Positions 545 to 61,754 of a stretch of 64,000 nucleotides of DNA are shown here, piece after piece. The stretch is from Magnetococcales bacterium DCbin4 (GTDB lineage Bacteria > Pseudomonadota > Magnetococcia > Magnetococcales > UBA8363): assembly GCA_002753735.1 (NCBI GenBank), contig PEAN01000010.1, positions 6,937 through 70,936 of the forward strand, in the 5' to 3' direction. The notes below the pieces were generated by a model that did no database searches, had not been told where the DNA came from, and saw only the letters and a program-made list of their open reading frames with translations. Numbering within the stretch: position 1 is the stretch's first letter; each line of letters starts with the position of its first letter. The translations under genes were made by a program, and so were the position numbers.

Positions 545-905
545 ACGGTTTCTCGATGCACTCAAGCAGGCATTGGATCAAAAAAAGGGAGAGGATATTC
601 AGGTCATCGATCTACGCAATCGGGCCATGTTCGCCGATTTTTTCCTGCTGGCCACCGGGACCTCCCGAACCCATGTCGCCGCCCTGGCCCAGGAAGTGGA
701 CCGGATCGCCACCGTTCATCAGGTTCATGTATTGGGGACCGAAGGATTGAGTGAAGCAAGCTGGGTCTTGCTGGACCTGGGTGACGTGGTCGTTCACCTG
801 TTCCAACGGCAGACCCGGGCATTTTTCAATCTGGAAAAACTTTGGAGTCCACGAACCATGATGTTGACCCATCCCATGCCATCCATTGAGGTTGGTGAGG
901 GATGA
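534..905 (+). CDS. rsfS: ribosomal silencing factor RsfS (iojap-like)
   Basis: GEDIQVIDLR...FADFFLLATGTSRTHVAALAQEV...WVLLDLGDVVVHLF...FFNLEKLW is a typical RsfS sequence. Start chosen at ATG 534 (MDNERF), preceded by GGGAGTG. The ORF-track start at 459 overlaps nadD. Confidence 0.9.
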   Translation: MDNERFLDALKQALDQKKGEDIQVIDLRNRAMFADFFLLATGTSRTHVAALAQEVDRIATVHQVHVLGTEGLSEASWVLLDLGDVVVHLFQRQTRAFFNLEKLWSPRTMMLTHPMPSIEVGEG

Positions 906-1381
906 TGAAGGTGACCATTCTTGCCGTCGGCCGGGGGATGGAACCTGCCATCGCCCATCTGGCCAAGGATTATCAAGGTCGCCTCCGTCGCCTGCTGCCG
1001 GTCGAATTGTTGGAGGTGGCGGAAGAACGCCGACCGCCCGGGCAAGCGGGACGAAAAGAAGAAGCGATGGCGAAGGAAGGGCGGCGTATTGATTCCAGAT
1101 TGCCCGAAGGGGCTTTGGTCGTTCCGTTGGATGGCCGCGGTGAAGCGCTTTCGTCCCTGGATCTGTCCCACCGCCTGCAAAAACTCATGGAAGAGGAGGT
1201 GCGGGAAATCGTGTTCGTCATTGGAGGACCCGATGGACTGGACCCGTCATTACTGGCTGACCGTTCCTGGATTTTTTCCCTGGGACCGATGACCTATCCC
1301 CACATGTTGGTACGGGTTCTCTTGCTGGAACAACTCTACCGTGCCATGAGCATCATCAAGGGGATCCCGTATCATCGTTAA
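902..1381 (+). CDS. rlmH: 23S rRNA (pseudouridine1915-N3)-methyltransferase RlmH
   Basis: MKVTILAVGR...VFVIGGPDGL...SLGPMTYPHMLVRVLLLEQLYRA...GIPYHR is the SPOUT RlmH signature. ATGA overlap with the rsfS stop. Confidence 0.9.
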   Translation: MMKVTILAVGRGMEPAIAHLAKDYQGRLRRLLPVELLEVAEERRPPGQAGRKEEAMAKEGRRIDSRLPEGALVVPLDGRGEALSSLDLSHRLQKLMEEEVREIVFVIGGPDGLDPSLLADRSWIFSLGPMTYPHMLVRVLLLEQLYRAMSIIKGIPYHR

Positions 1382-1470
1382 CCATGAACAACACCCCCTG
1401 AACGTCATGACCCCTTTTATGACCCTGCGATGGAGTCTACATCACAGACGAGCAAGCAATTCCTCCCGAA

Positions 1471-2112
1471 TCATGCCTTGGCACCCATTTTCTTCTTGAG
1501 TTCATCTAAGAAGCGCCTCGCCCAAGGTGACGCAGCACTGATCTTGCCTGGATCTATTATTGCGAGAAGTTTGAACGAATGCTCGCCTTTGCCATAGGGA
1601 GCCTTCGTCTTGCAATTGCCGCTCGCCTTGTCCAATCCATCATAGATCTGGGGCTTTAAAACACCTTCAATCGCATTCGCAGCCGCAGGAAGTAAATGAC
1701 TCTTGAAGCCCTGTCCGAAGAACTCCTTCAGAACATCGCGATCAGCAAGAAACCAACTTTCCATGACCTGCACCATGAGGTGACAATCAGTATCAAGACT
1801 GCCGTTGGGCTTTTCCCAACCATCGCCTTTGCGTTGCTTCAGGTGCTGCCATGGAAGCCACGTCTCGGGTTTCGCCGAATCCGACTGATACTCTGCGGCA
1901 ACAGACTCCTCGCTATCCACAAGCAGCATCGCATCTTCACCATGGCTGATCGCCGTGCAGAAAGACTCGTAGGCGTCTTTGCGGCTGCCACAAGCGACAA
2001 CCCGCGGACGCATGTTCAGTCCAGCATGGGTGATGAACGTCGAGAAACCCTCACGGCATGCTGCCTTAAGGGCAGCGGTATCGCCGCCACCTTCTACGTA
2101 GCGTTTTACCAA
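1471..2112 (-). CDS. DUF4276-like protein, putative TOPRIM-related partner of the upstream ATPase
   Basis: 213 aa. N-terminal YVEGGGD and later MLLVDSEE acidic motifs resemble a TOPRIM-style Glu plus DxD/E pair. The start overlaps the stop of the ATPase gene by 7 nt. Confidence 0.6.
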   Translation of the reverse strand: MVKRYVEGGGDTAALKAACREGFSTFITHAGLNMRPRVVACGSRKDAYESFCTAISHGEDAMLLVDSEESVAAEYQSDSAKPETWLPWQHLKQRKGDGWEKPNGSLDTDCHLMVQVMESWFLADRDVLKEFFGQGFKSHLLPAAANAIEGVLKPQIYDGLDKASGNCKTKAPYGKGEHSFKLLAIIDPGKISAASPWARRFLDELKKKMGAKA

Positions 2113-3281
2113 CGGACCCCCCCGATCTCACCTCGCGACCATAACTGCCCAAGGCGATATTTTTCAAGCCACGGTTTCAGTTTTTCGGCGTCCAGGCGTT
2201 CGAGCGTCGTACCGTTCTCAGTACGTCCAGCAACCAATATGGCTTCAGGCATGTCCGTCATCGCATCCACCAGGACATCGGAATGGGTCGTGACAATGAG
2301 TTGGGTTCGCTCGGAAGCTTTTTTCAAAAGCTGCGCCAAAGTCGGCAGAACATCGGGGTGCAGGCCAAGCTCCGGCTCCTCGATGCACACCAGAGGTCCC
2401 GGATTGGGGTGACAGAGGATCGCCAACAAACAAAGGTAGCGCAGTGTGCCATCTGAGAGACGGGTCGCAGGGATGGCATTGCGCCCCTCGTGGAAGAACA
2501 CTTGCACCGTTCCGCCTTCGATCTGGACATCAAAGTCATCGATACCGTCATACAAGATACGTAAAGCCTCCAACAACCGCTTCTTGACGACAGGTTCTCT
2601 GCGTAGGCGATTCAGAACCAAGCCGAAGTTGCTTGCATCGAGTTCCAAGTACTCGTTAGGTAAATCTGCCTTTTGTGGAAGGCGCTGCACCGTGTTGCGA
2701 CCGAAGTTCCATTCTCGATACAGCCGGAACTTGCTGAAGGTATTGCCCAAATAGGTCAGTTCCGGATACTGGTCCGGATCCTTGCGTTGCGACAAGATGG
2801 ATGCCGTGGGTTCGATCTCTTCATGTTGCAAGCGACGCTGCTGACCCTTGATGTTCAATACACCATGGCCATTTTCAAATCGGTAGTAGAAATACGGGCG
2901 AGCATGGCCATCATCCGTTTTTTCATTTTCGACATATTCATCAATGATTTCAAAACGCTGCCCGACCTCTGAAAAACTCAGGACATAACGGAGATCAACC
3001 GACCCCTTGGGATTGTCGAATACGGCATTGATCTTGGCGACGGGGATTTTGGCCGCGCCCTTCCAAAGCCAGTCTCGTACACCACCACCATCGCGAATAG
3101 CGGCGAGCAGATTGGATTTTTCCGAGGTGCTTGGGGCGGATCGAATGAGATCAATCGCTTCAATCAGATTGGATTTGCCCGATCCATTGGGCCCAATCAC
3201 AACGTTAAGCTGCCTCAGTTCGATGGGTGACGACGTCTCTCCAAAACTCAAAAAATTTTCGAGATGAATCGATTTAAGCAT
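2106..3281 (-). CDS. SMC/ABC-type AAA ATPase (AAA_21/AAA_15-like)
   Basis: MLKSIHLENFLSFGE, Walker A GPNGSGKSN, signature-like LSDGTLRYL, Walker B LVCIEEPELGLHP, H-loop TTHS. Start trimmed to the ATGATG at 3284/3281. Confidence 0.8.
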   Translation of the reverse strand: MLKSIHLENFLSFGETSSPIELRQLNVVIGPNGSGKSNLIEAIDLIRSAPSTSEKSNLLAAIRDGGGVRDWLWKGAAKIPVAKINAVFDNPKGSVDLRYVLSFSEVGQRFEIIDEYVENEKTDDGHARPYFYYRFENGHGVLNIKGQQRRLQHEEIEPTASILSQRKDPDQYPELTYLGNTFSKFRLYREWNFGRNTVQRLPQKADLPNEYLELDASNFGLVLNRLRREPVVKKRLLEALRILYDGIDDFDVQIEGGTVQVFFHEGRNAIPATRLSDGTLRYLCLLAILCHPNPGPLVCIEEPELGLHPDVLPTLAQLLKKASERTQLIVTTHSDVLVDAMTDMPEAILVAGRTENGTTLERLDAEKLKPWLEKYRLGQLWSRGEIGGVRW

Positions 3282-3438
3282 CATGACGACACCCATTGAA
3301 TCGATTACGAACCGAAATCCCCGCTGAGACGAATTCAGGGGGATTGGACCGGGCAGCGATTTCATAACCGAAACGCCCCAGATCAGATCGCGTTGATCTG
3401 TCTTCAGCAAGGGGGCACCCACTGGGACAGTTCATGAT

Positions 3439-4488
3439 CTAATGATGACGATCCACGGAGAACGTCGCCAACCGGATCAGGGCATCGCGTTCGCGTGAGG
3501 CGGGAAAACAGTCCGCTGCCTCCACCGCAGCCTCCGCCAGACTGCGCGCACGCGCCATGGCATAATCCAGGGAACCTCGTTGGCGCACCAGATCAATGGC
3601 CCGTTCCAGGCTTCCCTCGGGTTGATCTTTGGCTTCGATGCAACGGGTCCAAAAACGACGTTCTTCCTCGGAGCCATGATGAAAAGCATGGATCAAAGGA
3701 AGCGTGATCTTGCCTTCCTGGAAATCATCACCAATCCCCTTGCCCAGGGTTTCCCGGGTGGCGGAATAGTCCAGGGTATCATCCACCACCTGGTAGGCCT
3801 GTCCCAGAAGCAAACCATAGCGCGCAAGACGCTCTTCCTCGTCAACGGAACGATGATTCAACACGGCACCGATGCGGGCGGCGGCGGCGAATAATGTGGC
3901 GGTTTTTCTGGAAACCACTTCCATATATTGGGATTCGCTGGTCTCCAGATTGTTGCTGACCAACAATTGCATCACCTCTCCTTCCGAAATGACGGCACAG
4001 GCATCGGCGATGATTTCAAGCACACGCAGATCGCCATGCTCCACCAACATTTGGAAGGCACGGGAAAAAAGGAAATCACCAACGAGTACTGGAGCTTTGC
4101 TGCCCCAAACGGCATTGGCGGTCTGCCGCCCGCGCCGGGTGAGGGATTCATCCACCACATCATCGTGCAACAAAGTGGCGGTGTGAATGAATTCGACAAC
4201 CGCAGCCAGGGTGTAATGCTGTTCCCCCCGATAGCCAAACATGCGGGTTGCCAAAAGCGTCAGGATGGGCCGGAGCCGCTTGCCGCCACTGTTGATCAGG
4301 TGGGAACCCAGTTCGGGAATCAACGGCACCTGGGAATCAAGCCGATCAAGAATGACACGGTTGGTTTCCTTCAGGTCGGACCCGATGATGTCATGGAGAT
4401 AGTCAAGCACCGACTGGTCCCGTTCGCGAACCGACCGGTCCTGATGCGGGGATGCTTCCCGGGTCTGAGGCTGGACGAAGGCATCCAT
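3439..4488 (-). CDS. ispB: polyprenyl (octaprenyl) diphosphate synthase
   Basis: First DDxxD region LLHDDVVDESLTRRG and second motif YQVVDDTLDY. Overall trans-IPPS layout, 349 aa. Confidence 0.85.
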   Translation of the reverse strand: MDAFVQPQTREASPHQDRSVRERDQSVLDYLHDIIGSDLKETNRVILDRLDSQVPLIPELGSHLINSGGKRLRPILTLLATRMFGYRGEQHYTLAAVVEFIHTATLLHDDVVDESLTRRGRQTANAVWGSKAPVLVGDFLFSRAFQMLVEHGDLRVLEIIADACAVISEGEVMQLLVSNNLETSESQYMEVVSRKTATLFAAAARIGAVLNHRSVDEEERLARYGLLLGQAYQVVDDTLDYSATRETLGKGIGDDFQEGKITLPLIHAFHHGSEEERRFWTRCIEAKDQPEGSLERAIDLVRQRGSLDYAMARARSLAEAAVEAADCFPASRERDALIRLATFSVDRHH

Positions 4489-4787
4489 CTAGGAAAAAGT
4501 CCGTGAGGCAGTTTTCATCATTAATATTAAAAGAATTCTGTTCCAGCGACCACGTTATTTGAATGCGCGCATTCGGCTTGAAAGGCGGAGATTAAGTCCT
4601 GGTCAGCGTGTCGTCAAGTGTTCATTCATTCATCCGTCCCCATTAACCCAAAAAACATTCCCGACCATCCCCACCCCATGGCGCCCCCCTCAGGATTGAC
4701 GGATGAAAGAACCTGTGGTGAAATGAGGTCCATGACCTTGAGCCCGCGCCAATTTTGTTGCAATCCCCTGGACCGTTTGGAGTGTCT

Positions 4788-5420
4788 ATGATTTTGCCAC
4801 CGTTGCGCCCCCCGGGGTTGGAACAGATCGGACCCTTGCGGCTGGCGTCCGCCTCGCCCAGACGGTTGGAATTATTGCGCCAACTGGGTTTGGAACCGGA
4901 GGTCTTCCCACTGGACCTGGATGAAACACGACGCCCGGGAGAAACACCGTACGATTATTGCGTACGCATGGCCCAAACCAAGGCTGAAAAGGGATTTGCC
5001 CCGGGGATCATGGCCTGTCTCGGGGCAGATACCGTCGTCACGAAGGATGGCCGGGTTTTCGGCAAACCGGAACATGCCGCCCGGGCACGACAAACCCTCA
5101 ATGAGCTGGCGGGAGGCAGCCATCAAGTGTTGACCGCCGTGACGGTGGCCGCCGGCGCCCGACCGCACCTGCGTACCCGGGTCTCGACAACCGATGTCTG
5201 GATGAAAAAAGCGACCACCCGGGAACTCGATGCCTACATCGCCACCGGTGAGCCGATGGACAAGGCGGGCGCTTATGGCATACAAGGTCTGGGTGCCTTT
5301 CTGATCGAGCGAATCCATGGGTCCTATACCGGAGTCGTCGGACTGCCCTTGTTTGAAACCGTGGCTCTTTTACAGTGGGCAAAAAACCTGTATCTTGAAG
5401 GGAGCAATATTGCTGCCTGA
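4788..5420 (+). CDS. maf: Maf-like nucleoside triphosphate pyrophosphatase
   Basis: LRLASASPRRLELLRQLG, GADTVV, DKAGAYGIQG and GLPL motifs. ATG 4788 is preceded by GGAG. The track start at 4755 is a TTG. Confidence 0.85.
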   Translation: MILPPLRPPGLEQIGPLRLASASPRRLELLRQLGLEPEVFPLDLDETRRPGETPYDYCVRMAQTKAEKGFAPGIMACLGADTVVTKDGRVFGKPEHAARARQTLNELAGGSHQVLTAVTVAAGARPHLRTRVSTTDVWMKKATTRELDAYIATGEPMDKAGAYGIQGLGAFLIERIHGSYTGVVGLPLFETVALLQWAKNLYLEGSNIAA

Positions 5421-6348: not shown

Positions 6349-7749
6349 ATGCCCGGGCAGTTGTTCGCAGAAAAGGGTGCGACGGGAACAGGCCCGCTGC
6401 AATTGAAACCCCTTTGGATCATCCTCCTGAGCCTCTGGGCATTCCTGTTGGCCAGCGGTTGTGGTGGTGGTGACCGCACCAAGGATACCACCAGCAGTGA
6501 TTCCCCCACGTCCTCTTCGACCTCCTCGACCGCATCAACCTCATCCACCTGGTCCATCGCGGAAAAGAATGATTTCGTCCTGAGCCGCATGCGTGAATGG
6601 TATCTGTGGTACGATCAAATCCCCAGCAATCTCAACAGCAATAACTATTCTTCACCGGAAGCGGTGTTGGAAGCGGCAAGATACAAAGTCAAGGACCAAT
6701 GGAGTTATATCGCATCCCTGCAAGAGATCACTGCACAACTGTCCACGGGTGAATTCACCGGCATCGGAATCCGTACTTATCTGGATGATTCGATCAAACT
6801 TTGGGTCCGTCAGGTATTTCCCTCCTCACCCGCATCCACGGCTGGAATTCTCCGGGGAGATCGCATCTTAGGCATCAATGGCCGTACCGTCGAACAGATT
6901 CAGGCCGATAACGCTTGGGATCAGGCATTTGGCGCTGATTCCCCCGGAGTCACCATCACGCTGAACCTGTTGCGCTCGGGGGCGACCAAACTTGACATCA
7001 AGGTTACCAAAGCGACCTTTTTCGTCAACCCGGTTTATACCAGCAAGGTCATCCAGCAAGGCAGTACCAAAATCGCTTATCTGGCCTTTGATGCCTTCAC
7101 CAATGCCGCCTATCCCTCCATGCTCGATGCCTTCAATGATTTCAAAACCTCTGGCGTCACGGAAATGGTATTGGATCTGCGCTACAACTCCGGCGGGCTG
7201 GTTGACATTGCCGCCTATCTGTCCAGCCTGATGCGAGACGCCTCGGACAAGGATACCTTTGCAATTTTGAGCTATAATAATCGCCATACCTCCTCCAATC
7301 AGACCTTGAACTATACCCGGATGTCCTCCGATCTGAATCTTTCACGCATCTTTGTAATCACCACTTCAGCCACCTGCTCGGCCAGCGAAATGGTCATTCA
7401 GGGGTTGAAACCCTTCATTACCGTCGTGACCGTTGGTTCGACCACCTGTGGCAAACCGGTGGGGATGGATCTGGTTCCTTTCGATGATTTGGTTTTGGCT
7501 GCAATCACGTTCAGAATCACAAACGTCAACGGCGAGACCGATTATTTTGATGGCCTATCCCCCTCCTGTGCCGCCACCGATGATCTTTCACATGATTTGG
7601 GTGACACCAGTGAATCCTCACTGGCGGCTGCCTTGTCCTTTATTGCCCGTGGCAGCTGTCCTTCATCGACCAAACGCCTGCTGCCCAGGAATACCATGAC
7701 GGCCCTGCCACGCAGACTCCCCGATATGGGATGGGACGGCATGTGGTAG
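6349..7749 (+). CDS. S41-family peptidase lipoprotein with PDZ domain
   Basis: Lipobox LLASGC. Ser/Thr-rich linker. PDZ-like GIGIR...VRQVFPSSPASTAGILRGDRILGINGRTV. S41 core LDLRYNSGGL and TSATCSASEMV. Confidence 0.75.
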   Translation: MPGQLFAEKGATGTGPLQLKPLWIILLSLWAFLLASGCGGGDRTKDTTSSDSPTSSSTSSTASTSSTWSIAEKNDFVLSRMREWYLWYDQIPSNLNSNNYSSPEAVLEAARYKVKDQWSYIASLQEITAQLSTGEFTGIGIRTYLDDSIKLWVRQVFPSSPASTAGILRGDRILGINGRTVEQIQADNAWDQAFGADSPGVTITLNLLRSGATKLDIKVTKATFFVNPVYTSKVIQQGSTKIAYLAFDAFTNAAYPSMLDAFNDFKTSGVTEMVLDLRYNSGGLVDIAAYLSSLMRDASDKDTFAILSYNNRHTSSNQTLNYTRMSSDLNLSRIFVITTSATCSASEMVIQGLKPFITVVTVGSTTCGKPVGMDLVPFDDLVLAAITFRITNVNGETDYFDGLSPSCAATDDLSHDLGDTSESSLAAALSFIARGSCPSSTKRLLPRNTMTALPRRLPDMGWDGMW

Positions 7750-7804
7750 CAATGCATGGTAATTGCCATGGAAGTTTGGCAATCTTTTAAATCGCCTATA
7801 TATA

Positions 7805-7876
7805 ACAATATTATTGTGTTGTTAACACAATACAATCTCTTGAGATTAATTGTATTAATTCTATATTAATACAATT
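7805..7876. promoter_or_regulatory. cluster of inverted repeats (candidate operators) upstream of the MCP gene
   Basis: ACAATA-T-TATTGT (7805-7817). ATTGTGTT-GTT-AACACAAT (7813-7831). AATCTC-TT-GAGATT (7834-7847). Perfect 12-bp dyad AATTGTATTAAT-5nt-ATTAATACAATT (7848-7876). All lie in a very AT-rich spacer. Confidence 0.45.
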
Positions 7877-8017
7877 CATGGAGAAATATTGAAGTATAAA
7901 TGTCTGGCGAGCAGTAAATAATCATGGTAGATTTATTTCATGTGGTGATAAAAATTTCAACCGACGCAATGTACCACTTCCATTTTTTTAACACAAAAAA
8001 AACGGAGATTATCAACG

Positions 8018-9778
8018 ATGGCAAGCATGCTCCGAAAAATGCGTTTCCGCACTTTGATTATTCTTGTGTTCACCATTTCATACAGCGTCTTAGATCGGGT
8101 GATCAGTCTGAATTTTCGCGCCATCGGCGAAGTCAGGGACATGGGCCGACAATTACATAATGGCCCGATCAAACAACAGATTTTTTGGCAGGATATCGTC
8201 TTGGGTGTGCAAAAGGCGGAAGGGTTACGGCACCAATTCAGGCTGGACCACCATGCTGAAACGGTGCAACAGATGGAACAACTGGTAACAGAAATCAAAG
8301 GATCCTTGAGCACGCAGGGTAGCAAAGGTGACCAGAATGCATTTTTCGTGATGGTTGAATTGGATCAATATCACAAAGAATTCCTCGAACTGGTCGAAAC
8401 CCGAACTCAGTTGGACCAGTCCCGGGCGCAACTGGTCAAGAAACGGGAAGGGGTGGAAACCCTCATCTATGAAGCGGACAACGCTGGACTGGAAAAAGCG
8501 TTGGAAGAATTCATCATTGTCGAAATGACCTTTTTTACCGAGACCTCTTCTGGAGCCAAGATCAAAGGGGTACGGGTCATGCTGGATCGGCTGGATCGAG
8601 ACGGGGCTTCGATCAAAGATGAAAAGACCCGGTCTGGCCTGACCCGGGCGGTATCAGAATATCGAAAAGAATTCAATGCGCTTCTTGATTTTCAGGGACA
8701 AATGGCAAGCCGTTCCGAAGCCTTGCGCGACAGTGCCCAGCAGATGGTGAAAGATGTCAATGCAAGCACGGAACAGTCGCGCAACGAGGCGGAAACCGCA
8801 GCTCAGGCAGCCGACCAAATGGCACAGGATGCCCGCATGACCGCGTTGCTTTGGACATCCATCGGCATTGTCATCTCATTGCTGATGGCCGTGGGATTCG
8901 AACGCCGGATCAATCATCAGTTGGGTAGTGACCCGATTGAACTCGTGAATATTGTTCGTAACGTTGCGGATGGCAACCTGGTGGATGCGGTCAACAACAC
9001 CTGTGAAGGAACATCGGGTGTGATGTGCGATCTGCGGGGCATGTCGGTGCATTTGCGCTCGACGGTCACCGAAGTATTGGAAATCGCCCGGGGTGTGGAT
9101 GAGGGAGCCCAGGAAATGACAACCAACACCCGTATTCTGACCGATGGTGCCGTTGCCCAGGCCACGGCGATTGAACAGACTTCGGCAAGCATGGAAGAGA
9201 TCACGACCCTGGTCCGTTCCAACAGTGAAAGTGCCCGGCAGACGGAAGAAAAGGCCAATCAGGCAGCAACCGAGGCCCAGGAAAGTGGGACTGCGGTCAG
9301 TCGGGCGGTCAATGCCATGCGCGACATTGCCGGACGGGTGACGATCATCCAGGAAATCGCCCGCATGACCAACTTGTTGGCCTTGAATGCCGCCATTGAA
9401 GCGGCGCGGGCGGGAGAGCATGGGCGAGGATTTGCAGTCGTTTCATCCGAAGTGCGCAAACTGGCACAACGCAGTCAGGTGGCGGCGGGTGAAATCGATG
9501 CCTTGGCCAATTCAAGCCTTCAGGTGGCTGAGGATGCGGGTAATCGGATCCAAAGACTCTTGCCCACCATTCTTGAAACGGCCGAACAGGTTCGCTCCAT
9601 TGCTGCGGCGGGAAACAATCAGGAATCACATATTGGCCAAATCGATCAAGGGATCAAAAAGTTGGAGGCTGTGATCATGGCAAATCGTGAAGCGACTGAA
9701 CGAATTGCCTCCACAGCGGAGCTTCTTTCACAAAAGGCGGCACAACTCCCTGAAGAGTTGTCATTCTTCCGGGTTTGA
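8018..9778 (+). CDS. methyl-accepting chemotaxis protein
   Basis: N-terminal TM helix, roughly 250-aa periplasmic region, second TM ([18 protein letters not shown]), HAMP. Signalling hairpin [34 protein letters not shown]. Confidence 0.9.
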
Positions 9779-27950: not shown

Positions 27951-29045
27951 TCATAATCCTTGATCTCCTTCACCAAGAACAAAATAATATCCCCCCTGCA
28001 AAATTGCCTGCAACAATTCCGTTGGACCTTTCATGAGACCACCGGCATCACCCGGGGTGACGACCTTGAAACGATGACGATTCAACCAGGAACGAACCCA
28101 CGGATAATCAAAGGAAGACAAACCCCGATATTCATTGCGGGCAGCCCACTGCATCACCCCGTCGAACAGGACACCGCCCACCTGGTCGATATCTGAATCA
28201 ACCCACAGATCAAGACATTCCAGGTAGGGGTATCCTCGCACAATCCGCCGCTCAAAAATTGCATATCCAGCCAGCGTCTCTCCCTGAAAACATCCAAACA
28301 GTAATTTCATTTTGGATGGAACGCTGAAACAATACCAGTTAACATACGTTGCATTGCGAACCCGGGTCGTCGAAAATGCGGTTCGAGTTCGCTGCCAAAG
28401 ATGATCAAATGCGACCCCTGCTTGGTTTAACTGTTTCACCTGCCAGGGTCCACTGGAATATTTTTGGGACAACAGCAACTTAATTCGAACATACCACTGA
28501 TGAAATGATCCCAGTCTCCATTGTAATCCGATGGGCCATCGTCGGATGATGGATACATCGTGAAGCCAAGCGAAAATACTTGAAAAAACCAGGATACGTT
28601 GCGAAAACGGGTAGGGAATTGGCTGATAATGGAGTCGTTCAACTATTGCTCCAGACAAATTATTAAGTGTCGTATTCCATATAATTGTATCAGCCCCTTC
28701 CCTCAATACGGATAGAAATAGAATCAGGCCATTTTTCCTGTATTCCGGAGTCACATACCAAGAAGATACAGTCAATGTCAATCGTTCCTTCCCTGCCAAC
28801 TGGAAAAGAATCGGAATACAGCTAATAAACCCAACAATTCGTCCTTCTGCCCTTAGTAACCAGCCCCGAGGGATTGAATCCTCACGGAAAGGATTTTTAT
28901 CCCACCACATGGCAAATTTTCCTTGCCAATATTCATTAGATCGTACAGTGTTCCGGAAATCATGTAATAATTCCGCAATACCATCATAATCATTCGGAGT
29001 AACGCCATGAACAGAAACTGCGTGAGTTGGCTGTGGATTATTCAT
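27951..29045 (-). CDS. GNAT-like acyltransferase family protein
   Basis: GWLLRAEGRIVGFISCIPI...SSWYVTPEYRKNGLILFLSVL is a GNAT motif-A-like region. Similar layout to the ORF at 60885..61754. Confidence 0.55.
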   Translation of the reverse strand: MNNPQPTHAVSVHGVTPNDYDGIAELLHDFRNTVRSNEYWQGKFAMWWDKNPFREDSIPRGWLLRAEGRIVGFISCIPILFQLAGKERLTLTVSSWYVTPEYRKNGLILFLSVLREGADTIIWNTTLNNLSGAIVERLHYQPIPYPFSQRILVFSSIFAWLHDVSIIRRWPIGLQWRLGSFHQWYVRIKLLLSQKYSSGPWQVKQLNQAGVAFDHLWQRTRTAFSTTRVRNATYVNWYCFSVPSKMKLLFGCFQGETLAGYAIFERRIVRGYPYLECLDLWVDSDIDQVGGVLFDGVMQWAARNEYRGLSSFDYPWVRSWLNRHRFKVVTPGDAGGLMKGPTELLQAILQGGYYFVLGEGDQGL

Positions 29046-45464: not shown

Positions 45465-47018
45465 TCAGGCCAGCCAGGGACTCAGTCCTTCCAGGGCCAA
45501 TGCCCGAACCTGGTCGGTCACCCGGGGATCGACGAATACGCGGGCCAGGCGGCGGCGACTCTGGCCGAGGAAATGAACCAATGGACTGACCTGTTCTGCG
45601 GGTCGCACCGTCCCCTCCTGCGTGATGACATAGACCGGATCCGCGCCCAAGGGATCATATTGCAGGTGGGAATAGGGGGCACGCTGAATCCGATCCACCC
45701 GTGCCAACAAACGCAACGGAACATTCAAATAACCCCCATCCTCCTGAGGGGTTGCGATCATGTCCTCATCATGGTCGCGAAAAAACCGTTCAACCCGTTC
45801 CACAAGCTGAGGGTCATGGATCAAATCGGTCGCCTGTGGTGCTGCCCGTAACGTCGGATCCAATGCCACGCCCCCGGGGAACGGGGTGAAACCAAAAGAC
45901 AACTGCCCTTGATCCTCGCCTCCCGTCGGCATGTTCCACCTCAGTCGGCGATAAATGGACTGGCGATGACAAAACATGCGGCAACGCTGCCGCAACTCGC
46001 CCTGTACCGCCGTGCGCGGTTCCATGCTGGCCCAACGTCCAAGGGCATAATCGACCACCGTATCATCCAAAGCAAGAAATGCTTCGACCCCGGGATCCCG
46101 TCCCTGACGGGCGCTGGTCAGAAAAGTCACCAATGGCGGTGGTGTTTCAGGGGGTGGCGCTCCTTCAAGGGTCCAGATCCAATCGATGAGGCCGAAAATA
46201 TGGACCAGCAAGGTTTCAAAGGCGCGCACCGTCTTGTGATCATAGACCTGACGATACATGTGATCCCGGGCGAAAATATAGCTTTCCAGGGCGGCAGGCC
46301 CTTTACCCAGATCGACACACAACCGCAAACGTCCATCCACCGGTTGCACGTTCAAGGAGTGCAGCAGCCATTCCAGATCGAATCGGCCATAGGAGACCCC
46401 GGTACAATGGGCATCGCGCAACAGATAATCCATGCGGTCGGCGTCCAATTGACTGGAGATGAACGGCCTGCCGCTTAACCGTTCACTGGCACACGTACCG
46501 GAAGGCTGCCATATGTCACGCAAGGCATCCATGAACCGGTCCATCGCCAACCCCAATCGGTGACCATGTCGCTCCAGGAGGGTTCTGGGCAGACCCGGTT
46601 CCGAAAGAATGCGCCATCCCCAAGCTTCATGGTTGGGCAGATCGGGGAAAATATGTTCAAAGGCATGGGAATGGGGACCATGCCCGATATCGTGAAACAA
46701 GGCGGACACCTTGATGGCGAGGAGTTCAACCGGCTCAAGTCCGGTGAAACCACCCTGAATCGCCTGGGCGATCATTCTTTTGGCCAGGTGGAGCGTTCCC
46801 AGGGAATGCGAAAACCGTGAATGTTCCGCCGAAGGATAAATTTTCGCGGCGGGTCCCAACTGCCGGATGCGCCGCAGTCGTTGCATGGGGAGGGTATCGA
46901 TCAGGTCCAACAGCAACGCATCCCCCCAATCAACCGGGGCACAATCAGGGCCCTGGTCGATCCGATGCAGGATGATCATGTCATGCACCGCATCACGAAA
47001 TACCTTGCGGGCAACCAT
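45465..47018 (-). CDS. SAMHD1-like HD-domain dNTP triphosphohydrolase family protein
   Basis: KVFRDAVHDMIILH...LIDTLPMQRLRRIRQLG...SAEHSRFSHSLGTLHLA...ALFHDIGHGPHSHAFE...DADRMDYLLRDAHCTGVSYG. Start trimmed to 47018. Confidence 0.75.
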   Translation of the reverse strand: MVARKVFRDAVHDMIILHRIDQGPDCAPVDWGDALLLDLIDTLPMQRLRRIRQLGPAAKIYPSAEHSRFSHSLGTLHLAKRMIAQAIQGGFTGLEPVELLAIKVSALFHDIGHGPHSHAFEHIFPDLPNHEAWGWRILSEPGLPRTLLERHGHRLGLAMDRFMDALRDIWQPSGTCASERLSGRPFISSQLDADRMDYLLRDAHCTGVSYGRFDLEWLLHSLNVQPVDGRLRLCVDLGKGPAALESYIFARDHMYRQVYDHKTVRAFETLLVHIFGLIDWIWTLEGAPPPETPPPLVTFLTSARQGRDPGVEAFLALDDTVVDYALGRWASMEPRTAVQGELRQRCRMFCHRQSIYRRLRWNMPTGGEDQGQLSFGFTPFPGGVALDPTLRAAPQATDLIHDPQLVERVERFFRDHDEDMIATPQEDGGYLNVPLRLLARVDRIQRAPYSHLQYDPLGADPVYVITQEGTVRPAEQVSPLVHFLGQSRRRLARVFVDPRVTDQVRALALEGLSPWLA

Positions 47019-47129
47019 CCAGATCCCCCATTTTCCAAGTCGTGTTGGTAACAATGAATTGTTCTGGCACCAAAGGAATCGGCTACAATTCGGTAACGTG
47101 TATGATGACCAGGGCTTCCAACATTTTGG

Positions 47130-47149
47130 CCCCCCCCCCCCCGGGGGGG
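47130..47149. repeat. homopolymer tract C13 followed by G7
   Basis: ggCCCCCCCCCCCCCGGGGGGGatg read directly. Intergenic, between the helicase stop (47196) and the HD gene start (47018). Confidence 0.95.
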
Positions 47150-47195
47150 ATGATTGATGATCATTTTGGTCGTGATTTGTTGTCACAGGGAAAGT

Positions 47196-49514
47196 TCAGC
47201 TTGCTTGAGTCTTCCTCAGTGCCTCCCAAGCTGATTGAGGGTCGAAGACATTGCCAGCCAATTCCAGGTCAAGCAGTTCTTCCGAAAGATACGGATGATG
47301 CTTCTCGGTTTTCTTGATCGCTACATGACGGGCCAATGTCAGTGGCTCAGGGGGGCCATGCGCCACGAACCGTGACAACAGTGCTTCAACCTCTGGCACT
47401 TTGCACTTGTCGAGCCGCAGGAGCGTCCACTCCTGATTGGCTTTAATCCCTTCGGCAACCAACCAGAATCGCAGGGTATGCAAAACGCGGTCCCCCTGCC
47501 AGACAAACAATAACACCTCCGTCCCCTCTTGCAAAAGCCTGACCCTCCCTAAATCCAAACGCCGAAAATGGTCTCGTCCTTCCACCAACAACCTTTGAGC
47601 CCCGGCATCCAAATAGGGGGGGACATCGTCTGCCCCGTACAGGGCGAACATCTCCTGCCGTACCGCATCATGAATCCATGCCCCATTGCCGCTGAACAGG
47701 GGGGGTTGACCACCTTGACTGGGAGTCAAAATGATGGCCCGGCCCTTTTCATTGATTTCAAGGATCTGCCAGCGCTTTCCGGCAAACAGCAACATCTGGC
47801 CAGGTGCCAGGGGAAAATCCACCGGCAGCGTGCCCAGGGTCTTGCCGTTGCTGATCAAACGATATTCCTCAGGCGTTTGGAATGCGGCATAGAACGTGTA
47901 GTGGTTGACCACACGCTCTCCCATTGCTGCCAAAACCAATGTGCCGTCATGGTCCTGGGTGATGAGGTCGTGTTTCGCCAGATCCCTCAGGAGTTGCTTG
48001 AAATGGTTATTTCCCAATCCATGGAACGGACCCGTCTGACAGAACACCCGCCACGCCTCGTGCGGCTGGATACCACCCCGTTGCGCCAGGAGGGAAAGCA
48101 GCTGCTGCACCAGGGTGGAAAGATGCAACCGATTGGGACGGGGCGGTTCCGTCCAGCGTCGCAGCATCAGGTTAACCATGGCCACGGTTTGGAAGAAACG
48201 CATTCGCAAAAGGTCAACGACACTGACCAAGGGTGTCAGCGCACGCTCCTGGACATACAACCGCAACACGGAAGGGGATCCGCGTCGACCTGATCGACCC
48301 AACCGTTGCCGCAGGGCTGCAACTGACGGTGGACAGCCGATCTGGGCCACACTGGCCATTTGTCCAATATCGATCCCCAGTTCCAGGGTGGAAGTGCAGA
48401 TGGCCGTGGCAGGAGTGTCGCGCTGTTTCAAAGCCGCTTCCACATCTTCCCGTATGGCCTTGGACAAATTGCCATGGTGCGGCCAGAACTCGTTGGGGAG
48501 ATGCTGATCTTCGCACCTCCGGCGCAGCTTGTCGGCAATGATTTCCACCGTGCCCCTGGCATTGGCGAATACCAGATGCGAATCCCCACGTAAAGTTTGA
48601 AAAAGTGCCGTGATGATCTCATCCTGGTTCTCCTCATGCGGGGGCTTTTCATCCTCCGACGAAGAACCCCGTTGCCGGAACGGATCCCTTTCAATAAAAC
48701 CGTGCAGTTTTAAACGCACGGTCTGTCCGCCACCATCCGCTTGTACGATCTGACACGGCCATCGCCCATCGTGGCGCAGGGCACGCACGGCAAGCCCCGG
48801 TTCACCCAGGGTTGCGCTCAGACCGATGCGGGGCACCCGCCGACGGATGGTCAGCTCCAGTCGATGCAGCAAGGACTGGAGCTGCATCCCCCGTTCCGTG
48901 CCGATAAACGCGTGCAATTCATCCACCACAATACCGCACAGGGGCTGAAACAATGATGCCACCTGGCTACCACGCAGCACCATGAGGGCTTCCAACGATT
49001 CCGGGGTGATCAGGAGCACGCCTCCCGGTTCCTTGATGGCTCTGCCCTTCTCGGATGCCGAAACGTCCCCGTGGCGACGATGCAAAGGGAGATCCAGACG
49101 TTCACACAATCCTTGCAGGCGGTCGTATTGATCGTTGATCAAGGCTTTGAGGGGACTCACTGAGAGTACCCGGAAGCCCATGATCGTCGAGGTTTCTTGC
49201 AACAGGCGGGTAGCGAGGGGGAGATAAGCCGCCTCGGTTTTACCAGCGGCGGTGGCAGCGGAGACCACCACATCACGGTCTGCGGCAAGGATGGGCGGGA
49301 TGGCCCGTTCCTGGACATCGCGCAAGGTCGCCCACCCCTGTTCCCAGACCCATCGCTGAACTTGAGGATGCAATACGGCAAAGGCGTTGGATGGCCCGCA
49401 TTCGGCAGAGGATTCCACCGGATTGGCGACCCTGGCGGGAACGCCATCAGAGGCGGAAGTCATGGAGGTCGTCATCTCCGGTCGAAAGTGGCGTTGTCGG
49501 CCCGTCGGTGTCAT
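47196..49514 (-). CDS. DExH-box (Lhr/Ski2-like) helicase, third gene of the TerB-ATPase-helicase operon
   Basis: Motif I ATAAGKTEA, II VVDELHAF, III SATL, V TSTLELGIDIG, VI QRLGRSGRRG. Large C-terminal extension. Start ambiguous (49514, 49475 or 49463); all overlap the upstream gene. Confidence 0.8.
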   Translation of the reverse strand: MTPTGRQRHFRPEMTTSMTSASDGVPARVANPVESSAECGPSNAFAVLHPQVQRWVWEQGWATLRDVQERAIPPILAADRDVVVSAATAAGKTEAAYLPLATRLLQETSTIMGFRVLSVSPLKALINDQYDRLQGLCERLDLPLHRRHGDVSASEKGRAIKEPGGVLLITPESLEALMVLRGSQVASLFQPLCGIVVDELHAFIGTERGMQLQSLLHRLELTIRRRVPRIGLSATLGEPGLAVRALRHDGRWPCQIVQADGGGQTVRLKLHGFIERDPFRQRGSSSEDEKPPHEENQDEIITALFQTLRGDSHLVFANARGTVEIIADKLRRRCEDQHLPNEFWPHHGNLSKAIREDVEAALKQRDTPATAICTSTLELGIDIGQMASVAQIGCPPSVAALRQRLGRSGRRGSPSVLRLYVQERALTPLVSVVDLLRMRFFQTVAMVNLMLRRWTEPPRPNRLHLSTLVQQLLSLLAQRGGIQPHEAWRVFCQTGPFHGLGNNHFKQLLRDLAKHDLITQDHDGTLVLAAMGERVVNHYTFYAAFQTPEEYRLISNGKTLGTLPVDFPLAPGQMLLFAGKRWQILEINEKGRAIILTPSQGGQPPLFSGNGAWIHDAVRQEMFALYGADDVPPYLDAGAQRLLVEGRDHFRRLDLGRVRLLQEGTEVLLFVWQGDRVLHTLRFWLVAEGIKANQEWTLLRLDKCKVPEVEALLSRFVAHGPPEPLTLARHVAIKKTEKHHPYLSEELLDLELAGNVFDPQSAWEALRKTQAS

Positions 49515-50790
49515 CGAAGGTCAGGGGAACCAGATCCAGATTTTCTTCCTTCTGGATTTGAACCCGACCCAAAAGGTCCTCCCATGCCATACCGGGTGCG
49601 TGTTCCAGGACCGCAAGGAGGTCCAGAAAGGCCCGGATGGTGTTGCGAGGGGTTTGGAAATAGGCGCTGCCCATGGTTTGGGCGCAATGATGCATGAAGG
49701 CGTGCAAGGCTTCGTCGGGCACGGCCAACTTCGTCGGATCGCCACCAGCCTGCACCAGCCGCAGTTTACCCAACAGCACGTAAAGATCCTCCTGTGTCAG
49801 GTTGGCCAAGCGGATCACCGGACCGGAAAAGTCCCTCACTCCTGCCTGAGCCGCGAAGCGGTTCTCCCGCAAACGGCTTTCCAACGCAGAATAACTGTAA
49901 AGTCCCCGGCGGGGATCGGTCAGGAATTCCGGAGTCCCGGCCATCAGAAATCCCAATCCCTCCGTAGCACCCTGGAGGGCATCGTTGAGGATGCGCAGAA
50001 TCTGTTCATAATTACCCTGCCGCGCCTGGGTGTTGGCCATCTTGTAAAGATTGACCATTTCATCCAACCCCACCAGCAGCCCTCGATAGTCTGCCAGTCG
50101 GACGAAGCGGGCCATCAGTTTGAGCTGGTCGTAAACATTGGCATCGTCCACAATGGTCCGCACCCCCAGGGCGTGGCGCGCTTCGGTTCGGGTGGCATAC
50201 TCCCCGCGCAACCAGCGGACGGCATCGGTCTTAAGCGAATCATTACCACTCTCGTGTCCGCGCCAATAGGCCGCAATGACCTCAGCGAAATCATAGCCGC
50301 CCACCATCTCTGAAAGATGCTCCAGACGGCGGTAGATCACTGTTTCCACAGACTCCCCAGAGTTCTTGCCCTCTTTGAGGGCCGTACTGACGAACCGTTC
50401 CACGACACTGGATAAGGCACCCCCCTCGTGTTTGGTGCGCGTGGCCAGGTTTCGCATCAGTTCGGCGTACAGGATACGTGCTTGTCCCCGGGTGGCGTGT
50501 AAACGGCGATCGGGGTTGAGGTCGGCTGTAGCGACCACGAGACCTTTTTCCAATGCAATGGCGCGAATCAGATTGAGAAAGAACGTCTTTCCGGATCCGT
50601 AATCGCCGATGATGAAGCGAATGGTCGCCCCACCATCCAGCAGACGGTCCAGATCGTCCACCAAGGCATGCACTTCCTCAGCCCGTCCCACTTGGATGTG
50701 TTGCAGGCCATGGCGCGGCGCCACTCCGGCGCGCAAAGATTGCAGGATGGCGCTGCGTTCCCGGGGACGCAGTGGAACGACATGGCTCAT
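49447..50790 (-). CDS. DUF2791/BrxD-like P-loop ATPase, second gene of the operon
   Basis: SAILQSLRAGVAPRHGLQHIQVGRAEEV...RFIIGDYGSGKTFFL (Walker A), LLVGLDEM (Walker B). ATGA overlap with the TerB gene stop at 50787-50790. Confidence 0.75.
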   Translation of the reverse strand: MSHVVPLRPRERSAILQSLRAGVAPRHGLQHIQVGRAEEVHALVDDLDRLLDGGATIRFIIGDYGSGKTFFLNLIRAIALEKGLVVATADLNPDRRLHATRGQARILYAELMRNLATRTKHEGGALSSVVERFVSTALKEGKNSGESVETVIYRRLEHLSEMVGGYDFAEVIAAYWRGHESGNDSLKTDAVRWLRGEYATRTEARHALGVRTIVDDANVYDQLKLMARFVRLADYRGLLVGLDEMVNLYKMANTQARQGNYEQILRILNDALQGATEGLGFLMAGTPEFLTDPRRGLYSYSALESRLRENRFAAQAGVRDFSGPVIRLANLTQEDLYVLLGKLRLVQAGGDPTKLAVPDEALHAFMHHCAQTMGSAYFQTPRNTIRAFLDLLAVLEHAPGMAWEDLLGRVQIQKEENLDLVPLTFDDTDGPTTPLSTGDDDLHDFRL

Positions 50791-60884: not shown

Positions 60885-61754
60885 ATGAGCACGGATCACG
60901 ATCTTCAAATCCCTGAACTCCATCCCATCGAAGATCGAGATCTTGATGGCGTTTGTCGGTTTCTCCAAGCCAATCTTAATCCAAAAGTATCCCTGGAAGA
61001 ATGGATGCGGGCTTATCGTCATCCCTGGGATCCGGAAAAGCCGAACAACGGATTCATGTTACGGTATCAAGAGAGGATCGTTGGGGTGTTCATGGCCATT
61101 TACAGTCGGCAAACCATTCGGGGTCATGTGGAACCATTCTGCAATCCGAACAGTTGGGTTGTTGAACGTGATTTTCGCAAATATAGCAACCTTCTGTATC
61201 GCGCCCTGCTGGCCCAGAAAGCCTATCACTTTTTCATCACCACACCCAACCCCGTTGTCGCGAAAATTTTCAGCAGGTCAAACTTTCAATATATGCCTGA
61301 TCAAATCACGGTATTGCCCTGCGTTCCTTTGCGCTGGAGTTCAGGACGGATTATAGACAATGGCCGGGATTTTGAAAATTTTCTTGATGCCACTTCCTAT
61401 CAAATTTTTAATGATCACCGTGACATTCCCTGGTTGCATCACGTTGCGGCAGGCAGTCCGGAACATTATGTCTACATGATCTTCAAACGGGTTCGGTTAA
61501 AAAGGATGAACAGTATTCGTATTTTGCATGTCAGCAATCCAGATCATTTTTTGGATTACCGTCATCTGTTGGCAATTCATTTTTTTCGACGTTATTTTGC
61601 GATCACCATGCAGATCGACCGTCGTTTTCTCAGTCAAACGCCACTCGTTTCTCTGAACAGGCAGGACGGACAACCGAAAATGTATTTCAGCGACCATCTG
61701 GGCGCTGCTGATTTCGGCTATATTTATTCTGAATCGACAGCTCTGGATCAATGA
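60885..61754 (+). CDS. GNAT-like acyltransferase family protein (paralog-like of 27951..29045)
   Basis: GFMLRYQERIVGVFMAIYS...NSWVVERDFRKYSNLLYRAL mirrors GWLLRAEGRIVGFISCIPI...SSWYVTPEYRKNGLILFLSVL. Confidence 0.5.
   Translation: MSTDHDLQIPELHPIEDRDLDGVCRFLQANLNPKVSLEEWMRAYRHPWDPEKPNNGFMLRYQERIVGVFMAIYSRQTIRGHVEPFCNPNSWVVERDFRKYSNLLYRALLAQKAYHFFITTPNPVVAKIFSRSNFQYMPDQITVLPCVPLRWSSGRIIDNGRDFENFLDATSYQIFNDHRDIPWLHHVAAGSPEHYVYMIFKRVRLKRMNSIRILHVSNPDHFLDYRHLLAIHFFRRYFAITMQIDRRFLSQTPLVSLNRQDGQPKMYFSDHLGAADFGYIYSESTALDQ

Follow-up and report, generated by a model that had tools for sequence, protein, structure and literature searches.

What is the two-gene cassette that lies between the core genes rlmH and ispB in Magnetococcales bacterium DCbin4, and how did it come to lie there? 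We analyzed a stretch of 64,000 nucleotides (nt) from this bacterium (GenBank assembly GCA_002753735.1, contig PEAN01000010.1, positions 6,937 to 70,936 of the forward strand), which we call the window and whose own numbering we use throughout. On its minus strand, the window carries a gene for an ATPase of the ATP-binding cassette (ABC) type at 2106-3284 and, overlapping it, a gene for a small DUF4276 protein at 1471-2112. An earlier note, made from the DNA letters, had taken the pair for a conflict or defense cassette inserted at this site. We found that the pair is almost certainly a copy of the catalogued candidate antiphage system HEC-01 that arrived by horizontal transfer. The best overall explanation, to which we assign a probability of about 0.7, is that this acquired copy is a putative defense system in which an ATPase controls a nuclease.

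HEC-01 identity of the pair

The ATPase (392 amino acids [aa], counted from its first ATG) matched Pfam AAA_21 with an E value of 6.4e-41 over the whole model (1-304/304), together with AAA_15 and SMC_N. It matched the PADLOC model HEC-01A (PDLC04177) at 8.2e-186, with residues 1-391 aligned to model positions 4-393/393. The small protein (213 aa, from a TTG start), the predicted TOPRIM-like nuclease effector, matched Pfam DUF4276 at 4.8e-22 and the PADLOC model HEC-01B (PDLC04201) at 1.6e-76 (residues 2-209 on model positions 4-200/202), and these were the only models that it matched in the Pfam, PADLOC, and NCBIfam scans. Because the Pfam matches to AAA_21 and DUF4276 are this strong, the pair is not a chance pattern. 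The suspicion of a defense or conflict cassette is thus supported by the full-length HEC-01A and HEC-01B matches. AAA_21, AAA_15, and DUF4276, which the earlier note had listed for a search, were all found, and PADLOC assigned the pair to HEC-01; DUF4435 (AriB), also listed there, was not matched.

HEC-01 (Hma-embedded candidate 01) was described as "ABC ATPase + TOPRIM" and was found embedded in Hma systems (Payne et al., 10.1101/2024.01.29.577857). The window has the same two proteins in the same order, on the same strand and with the same overlap, and its close homologs are likewise embedded in defense loci. Both HEC-01 models are matched over their full length, by genes that are adjacent, co-oriented, and overlapping. 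The embedding in a multigene defense system, which was the basis of the discovery but is unnecessary for detection, is lacking here: the present copy stands alone between core genes with only the scars of its former neighbors left, and there are no BREX genes in the window. The sampled relatives also differ from the original description, in that they are embedded in type 3 BREX rather than in Hma. Other ATPase defense models (AriA, mad3, AbiLi, NsnB, Old, and PtuA) scored far lower or matched only the generic ABC core. The NCBI database already contains both exact proteins, under the names "AAA family ATPase" and "DUF4276 family protein [Magnetococcales bacterium]". The locus is real but ordinary, a typical copy of a system that is already on record. 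PADLOC would assign HEC-01 to it automatically; what our analysis adds is that its descent from a BREX-embedded pair could be reconstructed.

The ATPase carries the motifs of its class in canonical order, all of them on the minus strand and numbered here from the start used in the earlier note (the second ATG, 3281). The Walker A motif or P-loop GPNGSGKS (3171-3194; residues 30-37) is followed by the ABC signature-like LSDGTLRYL (2433-2459; residues 275-283, with LSDGT at 275-279), which aligns with the C-terminal region of the SMC head. Then come the Walker B motif and D-loop LVCIEEPELGLHP (2355-2393; residues 297-309, with CIEEPE at 299-304) and the H-loop TTHS (2280-2291; residues 331-334). 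All four motifs had been read correctly before. Among the best PDB sequence matches there was no closely related solved structure: the matches covered either the N-terminal head only (SMC and OLD 6P74) or the C-terminal signature and Walker B region only, the latter being matched by AriA 8UX9, PtuA, and retron ATPases.

The stop codon of the ATPase gene (TAA, 2108-2106) lies over the TTG start of the DUF4276 gene, so that the two genes overlap by 7 nt (2106-2112, minus strand). The same overlap recurs in the homologous loci L056, L060, L068, and L071 and measures 6-7 nt in L069 (L numbers denote the homologous loci or contigs compared). In homologous loci from other genomes the overlapping DUF4276 start is ATG or GTG. 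The overlap probably couples translation of the two genes. The 213-aa open reading frame (ORF), its YVEGGGD and LLVDSEE motifs, and the overlap had all been described in the earlier note, and they were confirmed both in the sequence and in the homologous loci. In some loci the public gene calls for DUF4276 are short (95-180 aa), which could be taken for decay; we rejected this, since the full-length ORF was intact in all five that we translated. These full-length ORFs start with ATG in L067, with GTG in L063, L064, and L071, and with TTG in L066, the last being the window's own gene. It appears that the gene caller misses a DUF4276 start that overlaps the ATPase gene.

Donor scars in a variable spacer

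The site of the cassette was compared with that of the five closest Magnetococcales species, all of them metagenome-assembled genomes (MAGs; L001-L005), whose IspB proteins are 84-85% identical to that of the window. In none of the five does the cassette intervene between ispB and rlmH, which are convergent neighbors 68-660 nt apart. The gap is empty in L001 (68 nt), contains palindromic AT-rich repeats in L002 and L003 (240-298 nt), and contains an ORF for a secreted Cupin_2 protein in L004 and L005 (512-660 nt). The repeats (e.g., L002 11026-11267) form long palindromes with arms flanked by GGGG/CCCC and have the look of miniature inverted-repeat transposable elements, while the ORF (e.g., L004 11041-11702) encodes a 142-aa Cupin_2 protein whose hydrophobic N terminus suggests a signal peptide. 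In the window the gap is 2057 nt. Because the five closest species differ at this place, the junction is a variable spot and the 2057-nt gap is lineage specific. In more distant Magnetococcales, rlmH is located elsewhere.

The cassette proteins have their close relatives in other classes. Homologs of the ATPase (386-392 aa) from Beta-, Gamma-, and Alphaproteobacteria are 76-85% identical to it, and those of the DUF4276 protein are 63-87% identical; the hosts include Burkholderia pseudomallei, Cupriavidus, Bordetella, Xanthomonas, Bradyrhizobium, Thioclava, and Thalassospira. Outside Magnetococcales, the identity of IspB is 47-58%. Since the identities of the cassette proteins to distant classes far exceed those of IspB, we conclude that the cassette was transferred horizontally.

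Several of the close homologs (78-85% ATPase identity) are part of type 3 BREX loci, in which they have brxC on one side and pglXI on the other. In B. pseudomallei, Cupriavidus, and GCA_008633285, the BrxC/PglY gene is immediately followed by the pair, whose genes again overlap by 7 nt. PADLOC recognized BrxF, BrxC, PglXI, BrxH, and PglZ as the neighbors in B. pseudomallei (the BrxC of L056 with an E value of 0), so that HEC-01 is embedded there in a BREX locus of type 3, between brxC and pglXI. Solo copies occur elsewhere, in a transposase/BrnTA island and in a region of Thalassospira that resembles a plasmid or an integrative and conjugative element (ICE). The BREX locus of Cupriavidus (L067/L068 9925-17179) holds additional genes: a HATPase_c_3 protein (629 aa) and a 454-aa protein are encoded between HEC-01 and the methyltransferase, and a SLFN_AlbA_2/HATPase_c_4/Fic-like_C protein is encoded after the methyltransferase. 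These nested genes suggest that several cassettes are stacked within one BREX locus.

Remnants of both donor neighbors are present in the window. At the 3' end of the cassette, the window retains ten codons (1445-1474, minus strand; MIREELLARL) from the beginning of a Schlafen/AlbA_2 gene, followed by TGA at 1442-1444. This scar, ATGATTCGGGAGGAATTGCTTGCTCGTCTG (1474-1445), shares its first 4 nt with the end of the DUF4276 gene. It is identical to L082 916-940 at 25/25 nt (blastn-short E value, 7e-8), and the homology ends at 1445. In L082, the closest contig, the gene after DUF4276 matches Pfam SLFN_AlbA_2 at 1.2e-17. At the 5' end are the last five codons of brxC/pglY (3300-3314, minus strand; RFVID), with the sequence CGGTTCGTAATCGAT (3314-3300). 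BrxC/PglY ends in LRFVIE and a stop codon in L083, L056, and L067, and in LRFVVE and a stop codon in L071, a few nucleotides before the ATPase start; in an anchored alignment with L083, 12/14 nt of the scar match. The former brxC stop codon (3297-3299) is now TCA, from TAG or TGA, and this mutation fused the remnant in frame to the ATPase. The resulting 438-aa ORF from GTG 3422 is spurious, the frame having been opened by the lost stop codon. The NCBI annotation of the ATPase begins at ATG 3296 (396 aa), within the brxC-remnant region. Judged by alignment with the start of the 392-aa homologs, the nearest ATPase (L083) included, the start is most likely the first of the two adjacent ATGs (3284, MMLKS...), and we therefore prefer it. 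The ORF of the earlier note was thus right in kind, as the AAA_21 match shows, but its 391-aa start at 3281 was most likely one codon too late.

Because the scars of both donor neighbors mark its ends, the imported fragment can be placed at 1445-3314, a length of about 1870 bp. The spacer between the ispB stop codon and the fragment (3315-3438) matches nothing elsewhere and is possibly native, and that between the fragment and the rlmH stop codon (1382-1444) likewise has no match elsewhere. The fragment is a piece cut from a BREX-type locus with the order brxC/pglY, HEC-01A, HEC-01B, Schlafen/AlbA_2 gene, and it is inserted in the variable ispB/rlmH spacer of one Magnetococcales lineage. The insertion between rlmH and ispB that the earlier note had proposed is therefore shown by two lines of evidence, the donor scars and the synteny of the five closest species, none of which has the pair at this junction. 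At the cassette edges, a search for flanking repeats or a target-site duplication gave only short repeats at the level of chance, and no mobility genes lie alongside the imported fragment. Two other public assemblies carry the same junction with 100% identity, which argues against a chimeric assembly. In PLSDB and INPHARED the only homologs were less than 30% identical, and there was no PHROG family for DUF4276. In the Magnetococcales MAG WMHbinv6, about 6 kb downstream of ispB, the minus strand of L014 (16936-17577) encodes a protein distantly related to the ATPase, with 29% identity over 221 aa.

Neither cassette ORF is interrupted, and no catalytic residue has been lost. The ratio of nonsynonymous to synonymous substitution rates (dN/dS) of the DUF4276 gene is 0.10 against its closest relative, L082, and the nonsynonymous divergence (pN) of the ATPase gene is 0.10-0.14 with synonymous sites saturated; both values reflect the whole path between the lineages and not specifically the time since insertion.

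Putative function and rival explanations

Is the small protein a TOPRIM nuclease? TOPRIM domains are defined by a Glu after β1, a DxD motif after β3, and further acidic ligands after β4 (PMC12065111). An AlphaFold2 model of the DUF4276 protein, built on 120 homologs, was confident (pLDDT 93.9, pTM 0.89) and gave the elements β1(3-9)-α1-β2(37-42)-α2-β3(61-65)-...-β4(110-112)-α, followed by a helical C-terminal half. This order of elements fits TOPRIM, and the strand order β2-β1-β3-β4 has been asserted for DUF4276 in the literature. In the model, E7 of YVEGGGD (2080-2100, minus strand) takes the place of the TOPRIM Glu at the end of β1; homologs of the small protein begin with MVKLYVEGGGD. D66 and E68 of LLVDSEE (1906-1926, minus strand) lie right after β3 as a DxE variant of the DxD motif, and E118 and D124 of VMESWFLADRD (1735-1767, minus strand) follow β4 as a candidate second metal site. 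In an alignment of 125 diverse DUF4276 representatives, 37-58% identical to the query, D66 and E68 were the sole invariant columns, and E7, G8, G9, E118, and D124 were at least 90% conserved. Thus, as modeled, the conserved acids of HEC-01B sit at the catalytic positions of TOPRIM. Published analyses count DUF4276/HEC-01B among the TOPRIM proteins and describe a metal site that is conserved between them and OLD (10.1101/2024.01.29.577857; PMC12065111). Because our own fold searches, given below, were not significant, the assignment rests on the placement of the motifs and on these two independent published structural analyses. The TOPRIM-like acids suspected in the earlier note are therefore conserved and well placed, but the fold itself drew no significant match.

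We compared the pair with other systems that join an ATPase of this kind to a small effector. PARIS (AriA and AriB; PMC11464382) likewise combines an ABC ATPase of the AAA_15/AAA_21 class with a separate small TOPRIM-type effector, DUF4276-partnered ATPases have been placed in the same AAA15/21 tree as the PARIS ATPase (PMC11464382), and PARIS offers the best mechanistic analogy, its ATPase cage freeing a nuclease upon sensing a phage protein. However, the effector here is DUF4276 and not DUF4435, with no AriB match, the ATPase is about 70 aa shorter, and its likeness to AriA is confined to the generic C-terminal ABC region (PDB 8UX9, E value 7e-5, residues 249-343). We rejected orthology to AriA: in length, range, and score the PDLC02980 match is that of the generic Pfam AAA_21, and PDLC02979 covered only residues 236-337. 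In MADS, the ATPase comes from the same wide family (PADLOC mad3, 2.2e-25; NCBIfam MAD3, 6e-25) and the partner, Mad4, is of the DUF4276 type; MADS too was rejected, with 88 bits for NCBIfam MAD3 against a cutoff of 420 and no Mad4 match by the small protein, and neither a methyltransferase nor other mad genes were found nearby. OLD proteins and GajA of Gabija join the same ATPase class to TOPRIM nuclease chemistry, but they do so in one fused polypeptide, whereas the two are separate here; PADLOC Old matched residues 297-361 only, and there is no adjacent GajB/UvrD helicase gene, so these were set aside as well. In variants of Menshen NsnC (PMC12065111), DUF4276 is a predicted TOPRIM effector under the ABC ATPase NsnB. 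Menshen differs in having three genes (NsnA/NsnB/NsnC) with DUF4276 as the C-terminal domain of NsnC, whereas DUF4276 stands alone in the cassette, which has no NsnA and matches NsnB at just 1.9e-21. AbiL is a two-gene abortive infection system of an ATPase and a small partner; its AbiLi model matched at 1.6e-25, against 8e-186 for HEC-01A, and the small protein had no AbiLii match, so AbiL was rejected too. By analogy, the pair probably works like PARIS, MADS, OLD/Gabija, and AbiL.

Does the pair act against phage? We consider an antiphage role of the putative HEC-01 pair somewhat better supported than its absence. A HEC-01 representative from a cold seep protected Escherichia coli from one or more of the phages T4, T5, and T7, and the DUF4276 homolog Mad4 belongs to the MADS defense system (PMC12065111). 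The statement of the earlier note that a DUF4276 partner has no experimentally defined function is outdated, HEC-01 having been assayed twice and Mad4 being part of MADS. How the pair would act can be sketched only tentatively, and a scheme of sensing and release is, unlike the antiphage role itself, less likely than not. In such a scheme, an oligomer of the ATPase would bind and restrain the nuclease and would serve as the sensor, as in PARIS (PMC11464382), Septu, Gabija, and OLD. A cue from the phage, linked to the binding or hydrolysis of ATP, would then free or activate the TOPRIM protein, which might cut DNA of the phage or an RNA of the host, for instance a tRNA, and the phage would be blocked either directly or through abortive infection.

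Several results weigh against the explanation as an acquired, ATPase-controlled nuclease defense, or against parts of it. The HEC-01 representative of the discoverers protected E. coli from none of the phages tried (10.1101/2024.01.29.577857), and the positive report from the cold seep is a spot assay with overexpression induced by isopropyl-β-D-thiogalactopyranoside (IPTG), with no magnitude stated for HEC-01. The scheme of sensing and release is pure analogy, and the nearest solved ATPases share only the generic ABC head. Among 350,542 PDB chains, the best Foldseek match of the small-protein model was the Thermus scotoductus OLD nuclease 6P74, which is not significant (E value 0.13, probability 0.77, TMq 0.36). 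A truncated core model (pLDDT 75) drew only generic α/β folds. An hhalign comparison of the DUF4276 profile with a single P2 Old TOPRIM sequence set YVEGGG on LLVEGKTE, with a score that was not significant. No match to a TOPRIM-clan Pfam family was found among the 125 diverse DUF4276 members scanned at E values up to 1, and neither protein matched the Pfam OLD-like_TOPRIM family. The confident model with its acids after β1, β3, and β4 thus stands beside a best TOPRIM-fold match of E 0.13. As to acquisition, the brxC scar is just 15 nt long, and composition gives no foreign signature. The cassette has a GC content of 0.52-0.53, against a mean of 0.558 (standard deviation, 0.038) for the genes of the window; its z scores are -0.5 and -0.75 for GC content at third codon positions (GC3) and -0.26 and -1.89 for codon usage. 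The cassette is therefore marginally less GC-rich than its flanks, as the earlier note had judged by eye, but it is not a statistical outlier, and neither windowed GC nor codon usage sets it apart. Finally, no promoter was predicted for the cassette, and neither a sigma-70-like promoter nor a terminator in the spacers rose above shuffled expectation; the cassette is likely transcribed by read-through from ispB or from an unrecognized promoter.

We tried to derive a profile of the OLD TOPRIM domain and abandoned this: a homolog search with the P2 Old TOPRIM domain gave just 5 fragments, a scan of viral contigs gave 9 near-identical Old genes, and tblastn against plasmids gave zero matches.

The close homologs raise the question of whether the pair is an accessory of BREX that helps or guards only BREX and that, once detached, is functionless cargo kept by chance. 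The closest homologs, that with the nearest ATPase (L083) included, directly follow brxC, the window keeps the scars of the BREX context without BREX genes, and HEC-01 alone gave no defense in E. coli (10.1101/2024.01.29.577857). However, both ORFs are intact with all catalytic motifs present, solo copies that are 78-83% identical persist in unrelated genomes (the transposon/toxin-antitoxin island and the plasmid- or ICE-like region), and solo HEC-01 was reported active in the cold-seep study. The family as a whole is also under strong purifying selection, though this is no measure of selection within the present lineage. We therefore regard a functionless orphan as improbable. To a similar degree we doubt that HEC-01 evolved as a guard embedded in BREX, sensing a phage anti-BREX or antirestriction protein directly and hence working after excision, maybe with an RNA or tRNA target like that of PARIS; guarding against anti-BREX proteins has been discussed for other embedded ABC-ATPase systems (Payne et al., 10.1101/2024.01.29.577857). 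If this were true, a solo copy with both scars would be a natural demonstration of a self-sufficient sensor-effector pair.

Could the pair instead persist by post-segregational killing, as an addiction or toxin-antitoxin module in which the TOPRIM protein is the toxin and the ATPase neutralizes it? The Pfam label of AAA_21 ("putative AbiEii toxin, Type IV TA system"), the tight coupling of the overlapping genes, and the patchy occurrence of the module on mobile islands would agree with this. The consistent embedding in BREX loci in the same orientation fits defense better, and the family is absent from PLSDB plasmids above 30% identity, so we hold addiction to be quite unlikely; as PARIS shows, however, toxin-antitoxin and abortive infection defense are not mutually exclusive. 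The core-gene neighbors, the host-like composition, and weak matches of SMC_N and RecF type to the N-terminal head might also suggest a native housekeeping pair, a RecF/SMC-like ATPase with a nuclease for DNA repair or chromosome maintenance. This is refuted in practice by the synteny and the scars, and its chance is negligible: the cassette is missing from the junction in the five closest species, its proteins are 76-87% identical to proteins of distant classes, the scars of the donor are present, and the NCBIfam SMC and RecF scores are far under their cutoffs. An acquired HEC-01 copy with a putative nuclease defense is the explanation that we prefer. As such, the locus offers a sharply bounded natural case of a defense module that was cut from a BREX locus and then persisted by itself in a spacer between core genes, and it bears on whether "embedded" defense systems can act independently. 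With 2188 DUF4276 clusters at 50% identity, HEC-01 is an abundant system, and each well-defined copy of it could serve as material for tests.

Neighboring genes and other features of the window

The cassette lies downstream of ispB (3439-4488, minus strand), a core gene for a polyprenyl synthase (Pfam polyprenyl_synt, 1.6e-76) on the same strand, and it is convergent only with rlmH (902-1381, plus strand), a core gene for a SPOUT methyltransferase (Pfam SPOUT_MTase, 8.9e-46). The plus strand carries the other flanking genes, namely, nadD (11-544) and rsfS (534-905) ahead of rlmH and maf (4755-5420) beyond ispB.

Composition varies elsewhere in the window. A low-GC patch at 7600-8200 (0.36-0.40 against 0.55) is intergenic, upstream of a gene for a methyl-accepting chemotaxis protein (8018-9778). 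Two genes are stronger compositional outliers than the HEC-01 cassette: a GNAT acetyltransferase-like gene at 27951-29045 on the minus strand (GC content, 0.45; GC3 z score, -3.0; codon usage z score, -2.7) and an ORF at 60885-61754 on the plus strand (GC content, 0.46; GC3 z score, -2.1), which matched nothing in Pfam or PADLOC.

The window also holds a complete Shango-like defense operon on the minus strand at 45465-53387. Its distance to the HEC-01 pair is about 43 kb, so the two do not form one island. The operon consists of SngA (50787-53387; TerB_N/TerB/TerB_C; PADLOC SngA, 1.5e-78), an ORF for a P-loop ATPase with GDYGSGKT that is presumably SngB (49447-50862), the helicase SngC (47196-49514; PADLOC, 5.4e-263), and then an HD-domain protein (45465-47186).

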